Below, piece by piece: positions 20,478 through 41,327 of a DNA stretch of 53,419 nucleotides. The position numbers were made by a program, and so were the translations under genes. How positions within the stretch are numbered: position 1 is the stretch's first letter; the number at the start of each line of letters is the position of its first letter. Under the pieces are notes generated by a model that was given only the letters and a program-made list of their open reading frames with translations, was not told where the DNA came from and did not search any database. The DNA lies in sequence record SRR20825019_2071. One strand, 5' to 3'.

Positions 20478-21893
20478 GTGTTATTTTCGAGTGGTATTTT
20501 TCTCATTTATTTTCTGCCGATTGTACTCGCGGGGTATTGGTTTGTTCCTGGAAAACTAAAGAACGCTTACCTTCTTATTGCAAGTTTATTCTTTTACTGG
20601 TGGGGAGCGCCAACGTTTTCTATAATTGTTCTGCTCACGAGTAGCGTCAATTTTTTTATTGCACGTCAACTAACAGACTCACCTAAGAAAAAACTGTTCT
20701 TGTGGCTCTATGTCATCATTAATTTGGGATTACTGAGCTACTTCAAGTACATGAATTTCTTCATCGAAAATGTAAATGAATTGCTCGATTTCGCAGGTTA
20801 CTCGTCTGTTGAGTGGACTAAAATTGTTCTTCCAGTTGGAATCTCATTCTTTACGTTTCAATCGATCACGTATGGAGTAGATGTCTACAGAAAGAACGCC
20901 GAGCCTCAGAAGTTTATTCTCAATTATCTGCTGTATATCCTGTTCTTTCCGCAGTTGATTGCTGGACCGATTGTAACGTATCGGAGCATCGCGAATCAAT
21001 TAACCAATCGGACTCATTCGCTTGATAATTTCATGAATGGGTTTACCCGCTTCGTGATTGGATTGTCGAAGAAAGTGCTGATTGCCAATGTTCTTGCAGA
21101 ATATTCTGACCTTCTTTTGGCACAGGATGCGTGGTATGAACCCGATTCAACATTAATAGCATGGTTGACGGCGCTCGCGTACACGTTTGAAATTTACTTT
21201 GATTTTTCTGGTTACTCTGACATGGCAATTGGTTTAGGCCGGATGTTCGGATTTAGTTTTCCAGAAAATTTCGATCGTCCTTATCTGTCTAAATCCATTA
21301 CAGAATTTTGGAGAAGGTGGCACATGACTCTTGGCGATTTCATGAAGAACTACCTCTATATTCCATTGGGAGGAAACCGCGTTACAGTGGGAAGGATGTA
21401 CGCTAATTTGCTCACCGTTTTTACCTTGAGCGGTCTGTGGCACGGAGCTTCATGGAATTTCTTAGCGTGGGGATTATTTCACGGGTTATGGCTTGTAATT
21501 GAAAGGATCTCACCATGGAGGAATAGCACAAAATTTGGTGGACTTAAAATGTTATTTACGTTCATAATTGTATTGCATGGCTGGGTTTTATTTGACGCCA
21601 CTTCAATGCAAGAAGCGATGAATCACCTGAGTGCGATGTACAGTTTTGAAAATTCAGAATACCTGGCGGACAAAAATGCACTTTATTTTGAAGTTCACAT
21701 AGCAATCGCGGCAATCGTTGCGCTTTTGGGAATTTCAGGGAAATTGAATAGCATTTATTTTATCCGTTTAAGCGACTTAAATTCAATCGGAGTGAAAATA
21801 ATAGGATGCGTCACAATTTCAATTCTTTTTGTTCTGTGTCTTTCTCACATCGTGGTTGGAAGTTTTAATCCATTCATTTATTTTCAATTCTAA
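20478..21893 (+). CDS. MBOAT O-acyltransferase, AlgI/PatA/DltB type
   Basis: LPVGISFFTFQ, FFPQLIAGPI, YFDFSGYSDMAIG, EFWRRWHM, LSGLWHGA. Confidence 0.93.
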   Translation: MLFSSGIFLIYFLPIVLAGYWFVPGKLKNAYLLIASLFFYWWGAPTFSIIVLLTSSVNFFIARQLTDSPKKKLFLWLYVIINLGLLSYFKYMNFFIENVNELLDFAGYSSVEWTKIVLPVGISFFTFQSITYGVDVYRKNAEPQKFILNYLLYILFFPQLIAGPIVTYRSIANQLTNRTHSLDNFMNGFTRFVIGLSKKVLIANVLAEYSDLLLAQDAWYEPDSTLIAWLTALAYTFEIYFDFSGYSDMAIGLGRMFGFSFPENFDRPYLSKSITEFWRRWHMTLGDFMKNYLYIPLGGNRVTVGRMYANLLTVFTLSGLWHGASWNFLAWGLFHGLWLVIERISPWRNSTKFGGLKMLFTFIIVLHGWVLFDATSMQEAMNHLSAMYSFENSEYLADKNALYFEVHIAIAAIVALLGISGKLNSIYFIRLSDLNSIGVKIIGCVTISILFVLCLSHIVVGSFNPFIYFQF

Positions 21894-22993
21894 TGAATAA
21901 GCGATTAGTAAATAGCATTTTGTCTCTTGGTCTGCTCTTGTTGCTTTTCATCCCAATGGTTGTGAATCACTCTAAACTATTCGAACCACTTACGGTTTAC
22001 GGTGTAGAAGCGGGCATAAATACTGACACAGTGAGTTGGTGGGACGGTTCAGCTCAGAAGCAATTTGACGAAAACTTAATGTCTTCTTCGATTTCTAGGA
22101 GCTATTACATTCGCATTCGAAATCAGTATCAATATTCGCTTTTCAACAAAATTAATGCGAAGGATATTTACAAATACGAAGAACAATTTTTTAGATTTTA
22201 TTCATTTACGTTTAACGAAGAACACAACTTTATTGGTGAAGATAAGGTGAAAGAGAAAGTGCGACTTTTGAAAACAATTCAGGAGGATTTGGGAGATGAA
22301 ATTCCAATTATTACAGTTATTGCTCCGAGCAAAGCGCAGTATTACAGAGACAGACTTCCAGCGAAGCATCACACAAATTCTACGCAAACCAACTACGTTC
22401 ATTTCTTGAAAGAACTAAAGGCAAACAACTTACCAGTAGTTGATTTCAACCAATATTTTCTAGAGAATCGTTCAACGACGCCTGCCATTTTTGGAGCTGG
22501 AGGAATTCACTGGTCTGAGTATGCCTGTGCTAAATCAATGGATAGTTTGGTGAAGTTTGTCAGTAATCGCAAGGGAATTGAGTTTAGTCGATATGAAACA
22601 ACTCCGTGGTTTAATAATGGATTCAGTGAGCAAGACTTGGACATCTCATTGATGCTAAATCTGGTTAAAAAACCAGTGGACAATAATCTCAGGGCGGTTA
22701 AATTGACACCAATTCCCAATAAGCGAAAAATCAAAGCAGTAATAATTACCGATAGTTTTTGTTTTGCCATTTTCACCACAGGAGTGGGAGAACAGATTTT
22801 TACTTCTGACACTTATTTTCATTATTATTTTGGAACTACCTATACGGGAAATTGGCAACCCGTTGATTGGAATTCAAGTCAGCTAACAAAAGACCTCTCT
22901 GAAGCCGATTGTGTAATAATTCTCACGGATGTCGTTAACATGGAAAATTTCGGCTTTGGATTTATTGAAGAAGCGACGAAGGCGAAAGAATAA
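21893..22993 (+). CDS. AlgJ/AlgX-like periplasmic O-acetyltransferase partner
   Basis: N-terminal anchor, VIAPSK, GIHWS, ITDSF; overlaps the MBOAT stop codon (TAATG). Confidence 0.75.
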   Translation: MNKRLVNSILSLGLLLLLFIPMVVNHSKLFEPLTVYGVEAGINTDTVSWWDGSAQKQFDENLMSSSISRSYYIRIRNQYQYSLFNKINAKDIYKYEEQFFRFYSFTFNEEHNFIGEDKVKEKVRLLKTIQEDLGDEIPIITVIAPSKAQYYRDRLPAKHHTNSTQTNYVHFLKELKANNLPVVDFNQYFLENRSTTPAIFGAGGIHWSEYACAKSMDSLVKFVSNRKGIEFSRYETTPWFNNGFSEQDLDISLMLNLVKKPVDNNLRAVKLTPIPNKRKIKAVIITDSFCFAIFTTGVGEQIFTSDTYFHYYFGTTYTGNWQPVDWNSSQLTKDLSEADCVIILTDVVNMENFGFGFIEEATKAKE

Positions 22994-37113: not shown

Positions 37114-37875
37114 ATGAAACTATATCTCGACTCAGAAACATACATCGAAACAGCTCAGCCTATTGATCTTTCCATTGGATTGTCGAATACGTTGGAGAAT
37201 CCTAGAGCGTGGTATGTTGACCCTCCCGTTTTCGAACCAGTTCGGACGGAGCATTACGTAGGGTCTGTAGCTGAAGGTGGAGTGGTTAATTTCAGAAATA
37301 TCGCGTTCAATCCTCATGGACATGGAACGCACACTGAATGTTTGGGACATATTACCGAAAATGTATATTCTGTGAATGCTTCAATGAAGGAATTCATGAT
37401 GAAGGCGAGAGTCGTCACTATTGAACCAAGGGAAATTAAAGGTTCAGCTGGGGAAATGGATCTTGTAATTTATAAAGATCAACTGATTTTAGAAGGTTTT
37501 TCTGGAGATGCATTGGTGATTCGCACTTCACCAAACGATCTATCTAAGAAAACAATGAATTATTCCGAGAGCAATCCACCGTATTTGGATTATACATGCG
37601 CAGAGCATCTCGTAAGTCTTGGAGTCAAACATCTTTTAATCGACCTCCCCTCAGTAGATAAGGAAAACGATGGAGGCGCTTTGGCATTTCATCACGGTTT
37701 TTGGGAAGTTCCTGAGAATCCCAATTTTGAGCGAACGATTACGGAATTGATTTACGTCCCAAATAGCGTTGAAGACGGGGATTATATTTTAGAATTACAA
37801 GTGGCGCCATTCGAAAACGATGCTGCGCCTAGCAGACCTGTTCTTTACACTATACAAAAAGAGAGGACTCAATGA
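37114..37875 (+). CDS. Cyclase family metal-dependent hydrolase (kynurenine formamidase-like)
   Basis: NPHGHGTHTECLGH (HxGTHxE/D..H), LIDLPSVD, ITELIY, DAAPSRP. Confidence 0.85.
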   Translation: MKLYLDSETYIETAQPIDLSIGLSNTLENPRAWYVDPPVFEPVRTEHYVGSVAEGGVVNFRNIAFNPHGHGTHTECLGHITENVYSVNASMKEFMMKARVVTIEPREIKGSAGEMDLVIYKDQLILEGFSGDALVIRTSPNDLSKKTMNYSESNPPYLDYTCAEHLVSLGVKHLLIDLPSVDKENDGGALAFHHGFWEVPENPNFERTITELIYVPNSVEDGDYILELQVAPFENDAAPSRPVLYTIQKERTQ

Positions 37876-37884
37876 ATCCTCTCT
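37856..37884 (-). terminator. Minus-strand intrinsic terminator overlapping the cyclase stop codon
   Basis: Minus strand AGAGAGGATTC-ATT-GAGTCCTCTCT-TTTT; the single imperfection is a G-U pair only on the minus strand. Confidence 0.8.
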
Positions 37885-38139
37885 AATGTGTTAGTAGTAA
37901 ATTAATCAATAAGTAGTAGTAAACAACAATATCTTCAATAGAAGAATAAACCTAATCAATCGGTTAAAAAAATCAGGAATTTTCTCTAAGCTCTGTGTTT
38001 CCACATTGAACTATTGAATTCACTAAGAACTGTTATACTCTTTAATCAAACTAGAAAATGAAGCTGCCTCTCCAAGCAGCGTGAATCCAATATTTCAAAT
38101 AACTATGAGAAAATTTCCTGATATTTCTCCTTATTTCTT
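37856..38139 (-). ncRNA. Candidate structured sRNA downstream of the LytTR regulator
   Basis: No ORF; long-range 15-bp stem, GGAG-loop hairpin, repeated motifs, terminator, upstream promoter-like element. Confidence 0.45.
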
Positions 38140-38143
38140 GAAA

Positions 38144-38212
38144 CTAATATAGATTCTTTTTTTGGTTCGAATGGTGACAAATGAATATCGAGGTTAGTTA
38201 ACTGATCAGATG
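38144..38212 (-). promoter_or_regulatory. Putative LytTR-binding direct repeats plus a weak -7 element
   Basis: Minus strand CAGTT (38204), CATTT (38183), CATTC (38173), i.e. 21- and 10-bp offsets, then TATATTAG (38151-38144). Confidence 0.45.
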
Positions 38213-38235
38213 CACCAATCCACTTATTTTTTAAT

Positions 38236-38979
38236 TTACAGATTCTCTAAACGAGCAAAAAACAGGTCACGTTTCGCAGGCGACAAAGGAACTTCTGATC
38301 CATCTTTCATTACAACGGCACCCCCATTTTTTTTGTCGTAGCGATCTACGTATGCAATATTTATCAAATGCGATTGTTGTACACGCAGAAAATTGTGTCC
38401 GCTTAACAGTGTCTCGTATTCTTTGAGAGTTTTTGAAACGAGAATTTTTTTACTGTCTTTCAAGAAGAAAGAGGTATAGTTTCTATCTGCTTCGCAACGA
38501 ATGATTTGATCCAGTTCCACTACATGGACACTCTCTTGCGTTTTGAGAACAAGTCTTCGTTTCTCATTTGGTTGAATGTTTGAACTTAAGGCATCATATT
38601 GTGATCCACCTTTATGTTCTTCTAGTGTTTCCAATGCTCTATCCAACGCAGATTTTAACTCTGCAGAATCAACAGGTTTTAGAAGGTAATCCAGCGCACT
38701 GAACTTTATAGCTTTAATGGCGAATTCCTCATGTGCTGTAATGAAAATTACTTCAAATGTTTTTTCAGGAATCGAACGGATTACGTCAAATCCAGTCCCG
38801 TCAGGCATTTGGATATCCAAAAAGACAATATCTGGTTGATGTCTTTCTATTGCTTTTATACCAGATTGCACGTTTTCACCTTCAGGAATTGTAACGAGAT
38901 CGTATCCGAAAGAGTCGATCATCTTTGCAATTAAGTTTCGTGTTCTGTTCTCATCATCGATGATTAGTACTTTTTTCAT
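38236..38979 (-). CDS. LytTR family response regulator
   Basis: IIDDE, FLDIQMPDGTGF, DYLLKP; IIRCEADRNYT, SKTLKEYE..L, FLRV.QSHLIN. Confidence 0.95.
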   Translation of the reverse strand: MKKVLIIDDENRTRNLIAKMIDSFGYDLVTIPEGENVQSGIKAIERHQPDIVFLDIQMPDGTGFDVIRSIPEKTFEVIFITAHEEFAIKAIKFSALDYLLKPVDSAELKSALDRALETLEEHKGGSQYDALSSNIQPNEKRRLVLKTQESVHVVELDQIIRCEADRNYTSFFLKDSKKILVSKTLKEYETLLSGHNFLRVQQSHLINIAYVDRYDKKNGGAVVMKDGSEVPLSPAKRDLFFARLENL

Positions 38980-38987
38980 TCTAGTCT

Positions 38988-41213
38988 TTAGTTTAGTGGA
39001 TTTGTTTCAACAATGTAAGGTAATGAAATTAATACATTCGTACCTGTCTTATTTTTGGTGTCAAAGTCTTTAAGTTCTAAAAAACCTTCTGTCTTATTTT
39101 TCTTATTCAAGTTGTCAATGCGCTCACGGGTGATCTCCATTGCCATACTTTTATGTGCTGAGCTTTTCTTGTTTTTCTTGGAGGCTTCTCGTCCTACACC
39201 ATTGTCAATAATGGAGATATTAAGCATTCCGTCTATTTTCGCAAATTTTATTTTAATGAACCCGCCCTCAATCGTATGAAGCTGTCCGTGCTCGATGGAG
39301 TTCTCAATAAATGGTTGCGTGATCATCGGTGGAATAATCGCATGCTCATCCAATAGTGCATCTTCTGCTTCAATGTAAAATTCAAATCGCTCTTCGAAAC
39401 GCAATTTCTGAGTCTCTAAATACTTTTGTAGAATTTCAATTTCTGTACGAATAGGAATGTTCTCCTTGGGAGAATTCTCTAAAATCAAGCGCATTAGTCG
39501 CGAGAAATTGACCAGGAATTTGGTTGAATTCTCTGTATCATTTTCGTAGATATAACTTTGAATTACCGACATGGCATTGAAGACAAAATGCGGATTCATC
39601 TGCGTACGCAACAGCGTTTGAGACATTTCTGCTTCTTTTCTTTCTTGCTTAATTTTTGTTTGATTCCACCTGTAGAAGATAATAATTCCAGCAAGGGCAA
39701 TTATGATCAAAAACGCGACAATGATATAGGTCTGGAAATTGTTTCTAAGTTGACTATTCTCTAATTGCGTTGCGGTAATAAATCGTTCTTGCCGCTCCCG
39801 TTCAATAGAATCGGCCTGAGAGTTAATGAGTCGCTCACGTTGCTCCGAACGGTATGACTCGCTGAGTTCGGCAATTTTGGTTGCGGCTTGTAGCGTTGTG
39901 TTGCTATCTACATAGTCAAGATAGAGTTTGAGGTATTCAAGCGACTTCGGAGCGTTATTAATTCCATCATATACCTCTGCAATAACACGATATGTATGGT
40001 AAATCTGATTTTTCGCTCCAAATCGTTCTCGAATTTCAATGGAACGATTCAGGTAATTTAGTGCGTTTGAGTATTTCTCTTGCGCTAAGAAAACGGTTCC
40101 TACATTGTGGTAGACGCCTGCAATTTTTTCTTTGTTATTTGTGGATTCATAATACACCAACGCTTTATTGAAATTGAGTGATGCTTTGTCGTAGATTCCT
40201 TGGTCTTTGTAGACCATTCCTAAAATATTATGTGTTTCCCCGAGTCCGTTGACATCGTGCAAGCGATTCAAGAGCGCGATTGACTGATTGGCATTATCGG
40301 TCGCAGATTGAAACTGTTTTCGTTTAAGTTGAACCGCCGCCAAATTGGTAAGAGCAAAAGCCATCTGTCGATAATCGAAGATTTGTTGTGCATAATCGTG
40401 TGAGCGTTTGAAGTAGTATTCTGCGTCATCGAGGTTGAGAATCAATGTTTGCGATTGACCTATTTCTCTTGAAAATTGAGCCATTAGGAAAATATCCTGA
40501 ACTTCCTCCGCGAGTTGTAAGCTGATCAAATTTTTGGCAACACTCAATTCTACTTGCCCAAAAAAGTCGTAGATCTCCGCTTGCGTGCTAAATGCTCTTG
40601 CCAAGGTTGCTTTATCCGCACTCCTTCTACCAAAACTAATTCCACGATCGGCATAGACCAACGCAGAATCTTTCATGTTCGCATTCATGAAATTATACGC
40701 CAATACAGAATGAACGTCAGAAAGTTTTAAGTTGTCTCTTCTTTTTTTGGCAATTTTAAGCGCCATTCGAAGGTAAAATTCAGCAGTTTCAATTTCTAAT
40801 ACGGTGCTGTGGTAATATCCCAAGTGGCGATATACTTTAAACAATGCATCGTCCGAATTTAATTTATTCACAAAGGGCTGACAGTCGAGAATCTGCCCAA
40901 AATACTTTTCCTGATCTCCCTGAATTTCGGCAATTTCCGCACTAAATAGTAAGGCACTAAATCGGATAGAGTCTTCAAAATTACGGCTCGCATCCAAGAT
41001 TACGGCCTGGAGAGAATCGGCTCGGTAAATATTGTGCTCTTTGTAGTACTCACCGAGTGCCATTAATCTCCTAAACTTCTTTTTTGGCTGTTTTTCAGAG
41101 CTGTATGACTGAATCAATTGCTGCTCACGGATGCTTTGAGCATGAGTATTTGAACTAATTCCAATAAGAAATAGCAAAAGGAGATTAAAACTGAAGCGAT
41201 GAATCAACGTCAT
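38988..41213 (-). CDS. TPR-repeat LytS/YehU-type sensor histidine kinase
   Basis: Periplasmic TPRs, one TM segment, LRTQMNPHFVFNA, QPFIENSIEHG, IIDNGVGR, GT.V. Confidence 0.95.
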   Translation of the reverse strand: MTLIHRFSFNLLLLFLIGISSNTHAQSIREQQLIQSYSSEKQPKKKFRRLMALGEYYKEHNIYRADSLQAVILDASRNFEDSIRFSALLFSAEIAEIQGDQEKYFGQILDCQPFVNKLNSDDALFKVYRHLGYYHSTVLEIETAEFYLRMALKIAKKRRDNLKLSDVHSVLAYNFMNANMKDSALVYADRGISFGRRSADKATLARAFSTQAEIYDFFGQVELSVAKNLISLQLAEEVQDIFLMAQFSREIGQSQTLILNLDDAEYYFKRSHDYAQQIFDYRQMAFALTNLAAVQLKRKQFQSATDNANQSIALLNRLHDVNGLGETHNILGMVYKDQGIYDKASLNFNKALVYYESTNNKEKIAGVYHNVGTVFLAQEKYSNALNYLNRSIEIRERFGAKNQIYHTYRVIAEVYDGINNAPKSLEYLKLYLDYVDSNTTLQAATKIAELSESYRSEQRERLINSQADSIERERQERFITATQLENSQLRNNFQTYIIVAFLIIIALAGIIIFYRWNQTKIKQERKEAEMSQTLLRTQMNPHFVFNAMSVIQSYIYENDTENSTKFLVNFSRLMRLILENSPKENIPIRTEIEILQKYLETQKLRFEERFEFYIEAEDALLDEHAIIPPMITQPFIENSIEHGQLHTIEGGFIKIKFAKIDGMLNISIIDNGVGREASKKNKKSSAHKSMAMEITRERIDNLNKKNKTEGFLELKDFDTKNKTGTNVLISLPYIVETNPLN

Positions 41214-41327
41214 TGGAGGTAAAAATAAGATATTTAGTGATCTTTTGACCTTAGAAAGGGAGATTTCGTTCCTTCAAATTGCTTCATTTCTCTATCTTTG
41301 CGCATTCATTTGTTGAGCAGTAGAATC

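Follow-up and report, generated by a model that had tools for sequence, protein, structure and literature searches.

A conserved structured RNA gene behind a LytTR two-component system in Fluviicola-like bacteria: a candidate sensor-to-RNA cascade

What is encoded in a 360-bp intergenic gap, flanked by convergent genes, at the end of a two-component operon of the LytTR type? The question is raised by record SRR20825019_2071, of which 53,419 nt (hereafter the window) were analysed. The gap (37876–38235) separates the gene of a LytTR response regulator from a Cyclase-family gene. A preliminary description had read its minus strand as a structured RNA of ~285 nt controlled by the regulator, and the six features that it listed were all found in place on that strand. 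Comparison with related genomes strongly supports the RNA: judged from sequence, the gap encodes an independent non-coding structured RNA gene of ~284 nt, predicted to run from 38139 to 37856 on the minus strand. The reading favoured here, to which a probability of about 0.65 is assigned, is that this folded, autonomous RNA is induced by the LytTR two-component system and acts in trans.

Relatives recruited with the regulator protein are metagenome-assembled genomes of the Fluviicola/Crocinitomicaceae type. In 15 orthologous loci, the region corresponding to 38139–37966 is conserved at 73–87% DNA identity, equal to that of the surrounding coding DNA. The aligned loci feature, in this order, two ATTCAT-type boxes, a TAnnTTnG box, the invariant AAGAAAUAAGGAG, a long stem, hairpins and a linker. 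The arms of the long stem change in concert between clades, AAAUUUUC going with GAAAAUU and UUGUUUUC with GAAACAA. The hairpin CUGC-UUGGAGAG-GCAG is invariant, and is followed by an unpaired invariant stretch, UUUCAUUUUCUAGUUUGAUUA. Overall, three near-invariant segments are unpaired, AAUAAGGAG at the 5' end, the linker UUCAUUUUCUAGUUUGAUUA, and UUACUACUAA directly before the terminator.

The conserved region does not behave as a gene for a protein. The gap had been described as free of open reading frames (ORFs); no ORF of at least 20 aa lies over the conserved core, and none is conserved across the 15 members. Three of the 15 cores lack any ATG, the ORFs found in the others vary in position and length, and insertions and deletions are not multiples of three. 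A coding reading was rejected because of the missing ATGs and the lack of a conserved ORF. The RNA is assigned to the minus strand since G-U cells exceed A-C cells (81 vs 19) and the reverse strand scores ~20 bits with the covariance model, as opposed to ~200 bits. No family of Rfam 15, 6S RNA and the Bacteroidota motifs included, matched the region. Two hits were obtained at chance level (E 8.9 and 9.4), far under the gathering scores, one outside the gap, the other on the opposite strand across tail and terminator. That the RNA forms a new family, of a known regulatory kind, is well supported.

The fold is conserved as well. The segment 38142–37856 folds at -79.6 kcal/mol, vs -55.7 ± 4.3 kcal/mol for shuffled sequences (z = -5.6), and none of 200 shuffles was equally stable. 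Individual folds of 15/15 sequences give one common architecture, in which two three-way junctions sit inside a long closing stem: the closing stems P0, P1 and P2 are followed by P3 and P4, which surround P5, linker and P6, and P7 branches between P3 and P2. A covariance model was made from four sequences and the window fold, the 15 sequences were realigned to it, and the model was rebuilt. In the resulting alignment 86.5% of the cells are paired, vs 39–52% when partners are slid, and changes on both sides were found in 41/57 pairs; no shuffle of 500 matched any of these measures. A larger set of 45 matches, corresponding to 42 distinct sequences, gave 88.3% paired cells vs 43–57% with slid partners, both-side changes in 43/57 pairs, again 0/500 shuffles, and a covariation score of 0.415 vs 0.156 ± 0.007, all figures to be read with the reservation that alignments fitted to a model lean towards that model. 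In a plain MAFFT alignment, made with no model, P1 covaries already (4 pairs). The long-range stem of the preliminary description, with the T-run behind it, is thus real and covarying, and its hairpin with a GGAG loop is likewise present. Compensatory changes occur together with the lack of a conserved ORF, as in structured non-coding RNAs at large. P7 is made in relatives by different stems, with GAAA, UUCG or GUAA loops.

Upstream of the RNA, comparison strongly supports phased direct repeats of LytTR-type geometry. The proximal box is found in 42/42 distinct relatives, 43–47 nt ahead of the start of the RNA model. A distal box matching at 6/9 positions or more lies at offset -21 in 35/42, and in 0/42 at -20, -22, -31, -32 or -10; a weaker third box at -42 was seen in 16/42. 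CAGTT (38204–38200), CATTT (38183–38179) and CATTC (38173–38169) had been singled out in the window. All three are present; the 21-bp phasing is conserved, the additional box at 10 bp is not. A TA..[TC]T[TAC][GAC] box begins 36–37 bp after the start of the proximal box in 41/42 relatives. The -7-like box noticed earlier coincides with this conserved promoter position. In the window it reads TATATTAG, which matches 7/8 consensus positions (nn being free), with A for T at -6. In flavobacteria, as stated in parts of PMC6847099 and PMC9723704, TAnnTTTG sits at -12 to -5 from the start. Because this placement was applied to TATATTAG, the start is predicted at 38139, in agreement with the start proposed before. 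According to a passage of PMC4847170, almost all LytTR regulators recognize two direct (or inverted) repeats of 9–11 nt, separated by 11–13 nt. The repeats described here, 9-nt boxes with a 21-bp period and a 12-nt spacer, fit that layout, and the proximal box is held at a fixed distance from the -7 box. Counts within the window alone are near chance (TTCAT-N15-17-TTCAT, 4 vs 1.96 expected; ATATTCATT with 1 mismatch, 37 vs 36.2 expected), and enrichment of the boxes on this ground was rejected.

Tails consist of a U-run, a variable small hairpin, the loop of which is often ACUAC, UUGUUGUU, one to four ACUAC(U) motifs, AAUUAACUUACUACUAA, and a terminator; AAUUAACUUACUACUAA recurs immediately before the latter. 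The most frequent 6-mer is ACTACT, found in 32/36 tails. TTGATTA occurs three times in the gap, vs 0.07 expected, and both copies of TTTACTACTA in the 53-kb window fall there. Of these words, pointed out earlier as repeated, all are present and ACTACT alone is conserved; the extra TTGATTA copies are absent from the closest relative. The terminator (hairpin 37884–37860 plus T-run) is found on the minus strand only, as had been claimed, and contains a U-G pair. A hairpin and a T-run, as expected of Rho-independent termination, were seen also in the relatives' tails inspected. Because the tail motifs recur and a terminator follows, the RNA most likely runs to 37856; a shorter form may end after the U-run, near 37966. 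The features are collected in Table 1.

Table 1. Parts of the RNA gene and flanking genes in the window, in the order in which the minus strand is read
Feature	Position	Strand	Evidence
Sensor kinase, gene preceding the regulator	38988–41213	minus	TPR repeats and His_kinase PF06580
LytTR response regulator (receiver and LytTR domains), candidate activator	38236–38979	minus	PF00072 4e-23, PF04397 2e-16
Distal direct repeat CTGATCAGT (5/9 to ATATTCATT), preceding the proximal one by exactly 21 bp	38201–38209	minus	offset comparison
Proximal direct repeat ATATTCATT, centre ~-45 from the predicted start	38180–38188	minus	8–9/9 identity in 42/42
-7 promoter box TATATTAG, Bacteroidota sigma-A type TAnnTTTG	38144–38151	minus	equivalent box in 41/42
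RNA core as modelled	37964–38142	minus	fold z-score, covariance models, covariation
Near-invariant unpaired 5' end AAGAAAUAAGGAGA, with the start predicted at 38139; Shine-Dalgarno-like AAGGAG with no ORF behind it	38126–38139	minus	alignments; start from -7 box position
P1 5' arm AUCAGGAAAUUUUCUC	38107–38122	minus	helix 2: both-side changes in 14/15 pairs, 92.5% of cells paired
P5 hairpin, GGAG exposed in the loop, core CUGC...GCAG	38063–38080	minus	helix 8: 5/7 pairs invariant in 42 sequences
Unpaired near-invariant linker UUCAUUUUCUAGUUUGAUUA, best-conserved stretch of all	38043–38062	minus	core common to the first 15 relatives
P6 hairpin AAGAG-UAUAACAG-UUCUU	38025–38042	minus	helix 9: 3/5 pairs invariant; G-U pair kept in 42/42
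P7 variable hairpin UGUG-GAAA-CACA	37994–38005	minus	helix 10: both-side changes in 4/4 pairs
P1 3' arm GAGAAAAUUCCUGAU, then U-run 37972–37966	37972–37986	minus	covariation with the 5' arm
3' tail: small hairpin 37945–37932, UUGUUGUU, ACUACUAC (37920–37913), UUUACUACUAA (37901–37891)	37885–37963	minus	tails compared
Intrinsic terminator: 11-bp stem, 3-nt loop, U-run	37856–37884	minus	terminator scan
Cyclase-family (PF04199) gene, convergent with the RNA	37114–37875	plus	

RNAs of this family were found in 62/151 genomes of a family-level sample (Fluviicola-like), with 63 matches, single in 61 genomes and double in one. In an order-level sample the RNA was found in 19/151 genomes, 15 of which are shared with the family sample. 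Filters were stricter in these large samples, so that divergent members may have been missed, and many of the genomes are incomplete. Searches at full sensitivity gave one match in each of 3 relatives, and none in two which carry visibly divergent versions. The 63 loci fall into four classes: regulator gene upstream and cyclase gene downstream (24 loci), regulator only (14), cyclase only (13), neither (12). The RNA therefore adjoins the LytTR gene in 38/63 loci, and the LytTR gene resides elsewhere in 25/63. Six of these unlinked loci were inspected. The proximal and -7 boxes are present in 6/6, the distal box in 5/6, being degenerate in L108. RNA and promoter thus travel together when neighbours change, which strongly supports, at the sequence level, that they make up an autonomous gene.

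Variants were observed at several loci. Some genomes scored as lacking the RNA hold an altered RNA behind the same promoter (L014, L134, L136). In L014 (genome G004), L134 (G049), L136 (G140), L028 (G005) and L135 (G082) a reduced or altered RNA lies behind the regulator gene. The long stem persists in L014, with G-C in place of A-U. Only the hairpin, some of the linker and the tail are left in L134; L136 retains the tail motif alone and has boxes 42 bp apart, and the tail motif thus survives in reduced variants which have lost the core. The 5' part differs in L028, which has three ACUAC motifs, and in L135 no boxes could be seen and the motif is mutated. A variant of ~150 nt, preceded by three boxes phased at 21 bp, was found in L127 and L128 (G106 and G032). 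Here UCCUUAUU, located after the long stem, can pair with AAUAAGGA at the 5' end, a pairing which would hide the Shine-Dalgarno-like end.

How might the RNA be switched on? Hydropathy of the kinase denotes a signal peptide, a TPR region of ~470 aa, and one membrane helix (~495–515), followed by the PF06580 domain. Since signal peptide and TPR region precede the sole membrane helix, the sensor part is probably located outside the cytoplasmic membrane. The kinase would sense an extracytoplasmic signal and phosphorylate the LytTR regulator, a dimer of which would bind both ATATTCATT-type repeats (centres near -45 and -66). The bound dimer would recruit RNA polymerase to a promoter in which the -7 box is slightly off-consensus and no -33 box is conserved. 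The RNA would be the main, perhaps the only, local output of the system, and would pair with mRNAs in trans, perhaps aided by an RRM-type protein. LytTR control of the RNA, deduced from comparison of loci and genomes, can be called well supported, short of shown. The part of the preliminary description that names the neighbouring LytTR protein as activator stands on circumstantial ground: the adjacency in 38/63 loci, the geometry of the repeats, and the presence of a regulator ortholog in 60 of the 62 RNA-bearing genomes.

A series of observations weighs against induction by the adjacent system, in addition to the leaning of the fitted alignments mentioned above, and they are best taken with the explanations that they favour. 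The RNA might be real and be processed from the operon 3' untranslated region (UTR), or be made from a constitutive promoter, the repeats not being the activator site of the neighbouring regulator. No terminator was found in the stretch from the LytTR stop codon to the RNA, and read-through could feed the latter. The distal box of the window is weak (5/9), one of 7 weak cases. Sequencing runs, examined as assembled contigs, add one more point. Two runs were guessed to be RNA, and their contigs measure 208 nt (37957–38163; run X8) and 234 nt (37908–38129). The X8 contig reaches 24 nt upstream of the predicted start, past the -7 box; provided that X8 is RNA, this argues against 38139 as the sole start. 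A metatranscriptome contributed a 194-nt contig, which matches a relative's RNA across 37962–38087; the 1867-nt contig of a DNA-type run extends into the flanks. Short contigs confined to the RNA are a weak hint of a discrete transcript. Against a processed UTR or a constitutive promoter stand the unlinked loci, with their boxes preserved, the fixed spacing of the -7 box and the exact 21-bp phasing of the distal one. A mere operon 3' UTR, the condition under which the preliminary description would have been withdrawn, is ruled out because the unlinked loci retain the promoter boxes; the fold, moreover, covaries. Taken as a whole, this explanation looks rather improbable. Still far more improbable is that the element is a leader working in cis, be it a riboswitch or an attenuator, or the gene of a small peptide. 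The P5 hairpin with a U-rich run and the P1 stem with U7 do resemble terminators, one clade has two small same-strand genes downstream, and the AAGGAG at the 5' end is a strong Shine-Dalgarno-like sequence. The next gene, however, is convergent in the window and in 37/63 loci, the tails inspected end in a terminator, and neither the cores devoid of ATG nor the indels suit a peptide gene.

Alternatively, the repeats may drive the RNA through another LytTR paralog, or another protein that binds direct repeats, and adjacency would reflect inherited gene order. Genomes carry 4–11 LytTR paralogs each, and ATTCAT-N15-ATTCAT sites exceed the reversed-pattern control genome-wide, for example 7 vs 0 and 6 vs 0. 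The excess suggests that more promoters with the same box pair exist in the relatives' genomes, and together with the number of paralogs it means that another LytTR protein could be the activator. Counts in G001, G003, G064, G131 and G152 were 7/0, 8/3, 6/0 and 6/2 relative to the control; a 7-nt tandem repeat yields most of the matches in G131. The regulator ortholog is present in 60 and absent in 2 of the RNA-bearing genomes, present in 25 and absent in 64 of those in which the RNA was not detected (151 genomes in all). The 25 genomes with regulator and no detected RNA, and the two with RNA and no regulator, do not fit a strict pairing, and the co-occurrence is in part a clade effect due to shared ancestry, hence not an independent statistic. 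The RNA, furthermore, adjoins the cyclase gene (37/63) about as often as the LytTR gene. The cyclase gene is a core gene (145/151 genomes), and for this reason its adjacency carries no specific signal. Against another paralog also speaks the near-constant presence of the ortholog in RNA-bearing genomes, as do the reduced or divergent RNAs found downstream of the ortholog in L014, L134 and L136, in genomes scored as negative. In 5/5 genomes with unlinked loci the ortholog is 71–76% identical, vs ≤44% for the next paralog. All considered, control by a different protein is judged quite unlikely. A further point against the adjacent regulator comes from the kinase operon, upstream of which no box pair was found in the 12 loci inspected. 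Autoregulation was rejected on this basis, which leaves the regulator with a single local candidate target, the RNA promoter. In most of these 12 loci a conserved TATTTTTA-type -7 box (41214–41240, minus strand, in the window) precedes the kinase start codon by only a few bases; a box so near to the start codon implies that the leader of the operon is very short or absent.

The mode of action is the least certain part of the induced, trans-acting RNA proposed here. Of the two modes considered, pairing of its invariant unpaired segments with mRNAs, in trans, is favoured over sequestration of a factor. Weighing on the same side as the points above, a search of the window and the relatives' genomes for conserved targets that could pair with the linker or the tail found none. 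Sites matching a 16-nt anti-linker sequence are in modest excess over the reversed control (30/21, 31/18, 22/17, 42/23, 10/6). The best of them lie at the starts of unrelated genes that differ between genomes, and linker targets were rejected. When 52 start regions of the window were scanned for duplexes, one outlier emerged, gene 21893–22993 (-22.9 kcal/mol). It was rejected as a target, as pairing in the closest relative (-20.0 kcal/mol) is inside the background; conservation of the gene is also poor, its counterpart being 54% identical in the closest relative and ≤33% identical in three more, and none having been found in G002. For the tail motif, one exact complementary site was found in five genomes besides the RNA gene itself, and the complement is 3- to 10-fold rarer than the reversed control in the five. 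The reverse complement of the motif (37891–37901 in the window, and in the relatives' tails) is TAG TAG TAA, and the depletion is explained by its reading as three consecutive stop codons.

As for protein partners, CsrA (PF02599) was found in 0/5 relatives, as the preliminary description had anticipated, in a search in which control genomes score; Hfq was found in 0/5 above the family cut-off, hence nothing points to dependence on Hfq. RRM_1 proteins were found in 5/5. The idea that the RNA is a protein sponge finds no support in these data, since conserved exposed GGAG motifs are two only, and CsrA was not found in the five relatives. An RNA that captures a global factor other than CsrA, either an RRM-type protein or the unused anti-Shine-Dalgarno tail of the ribosome, instead of pairing with mRNAs in the ordinary way, is unlikely, and would be compatible with the exposed invariant 5' UAAGGAG, the GGAGAGG loop and the repeated ACUAC(U) motifs of the tail. 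To our knowledge Bacteroidota mRNAs have no Shine-Dalgarno sequences, and an exposed 5' end and loop of this type are thus odd there. If factor capture were true, Bacteroidota would have their own equivalent of the Gac/Rsm circuit, operated by way of a LytTR regulator.

Two observations concern the genes that follow the RNA. The terminator overlaps the stop codon (37873–37875) and the last codons of the cyclase gene, so that, where the two are neighbours (37/63 loci), the 3' end of the RNA is antisense to the 3' end of the cyclase gene. In one clade two small same-strand genes are located after the RNA terminator (L007:5201-5855; also L004, L006, L008-L011, L014). They encode proteins of 97 aa and 118 aa, the latter with a very acidic tail; neither was assigned to a Pfam family. 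The pair has its own conserved upstream region, which ends in TAATTTTG.

A conserved RNA gene after the LytTR gene, with a promoter and regulator-type repeats of its own, suggests that the sensor system acts through an RNA. Bacteroidota carry a great many LytS/LytTR-type two-component systems, and for hardly any of them is the output known. The system described here is directly testable because its candidate output is single and sharply defined: a structured RNA that is conserved, and whose level could report whatever signal the TPR domain senses. The family, with 42 distinct members and strong covariation, is new, and comes from a phylum in which regulation by RNA does without the customary helper proteins. 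Searches of the literature for LytTR and small RNAs in Bacteroidetes, for Fluviicola small RNAs, and for LytTR repeats in Flavobacterium retrieved nothing on this RNA; as no LytTR-to-small-RNA cascade was found published for Bacteroidota, the locus adds a candidate one.

Among known systems, VirS/VirR-VR-RNA of Clostridium perfringens and GacS/GacA-RsmY/RsmZ are two-component systems whose main output is a regulatory RNA, as proposed here. Neither VR-RNA nor RsmY/RsmZ is homologous to the RNA. Rsm RNAs titrate CsrA/RsmA by many GGA loops, in contrast to the two conserved GGAG motifs exposed here in genomes where CsrA was not found (0/5). YpdA/YpdB and BtsS/BtsR of Escherichia coli, which also combine a PF06580 kinase, a LytTR regulator and a direct-repeat operator, activate transporter genes and are not known to drive an RNA; they differ also because here the TPR sensor lies outside the membrane and the kinase has one membrane helix. 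The YpdB operator is given in a passage of PMC4847170 as GGCATTTCAT twice, and shares TTCAT with the box described here; binding of VirR to imperfect direct repeats is stated in the title of a reference cited in the same paper. Rfp18 of Flavobacterium psychrophilum, one of the base-pairing small RNAs of flavobacteria, as portrayed in parts of PMC9723704, is independent, strongly folded, conserved beyond one species of Flavobacteriales, and has a TAnnTTTG promoter. It resembles the present RNA as an independent folded small RNA with a promoter of the same type, and differs in sequence, and in having known targets, none having been found here; the word LytTR occurs 0 times in the main text of that paper. 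In AgrC/AgrA-RNAIII of Staphylococcus aureus, too, an RNA gene lies beside two-component genes. The sections of PMC4227749 dealing with this system report that an AgrA dimer binds such repeats upstream of the RNAIII promoter, and that RNAIII encodes delta-hemolysin. In contrast, the RNA described here has no similarity to RNAIII in sequence or fold, has no encoded peptide, and lies downstream of its regulator on the same strand, RNAIII being divergent. Its promoter belongs to the Bacteroidota -7 type, the box pair missing before the kinase operon in the 12 loci inspected gives no sign of autoregulation, and in the kinase a large TPR sensor takes the place of a peptide receptor.

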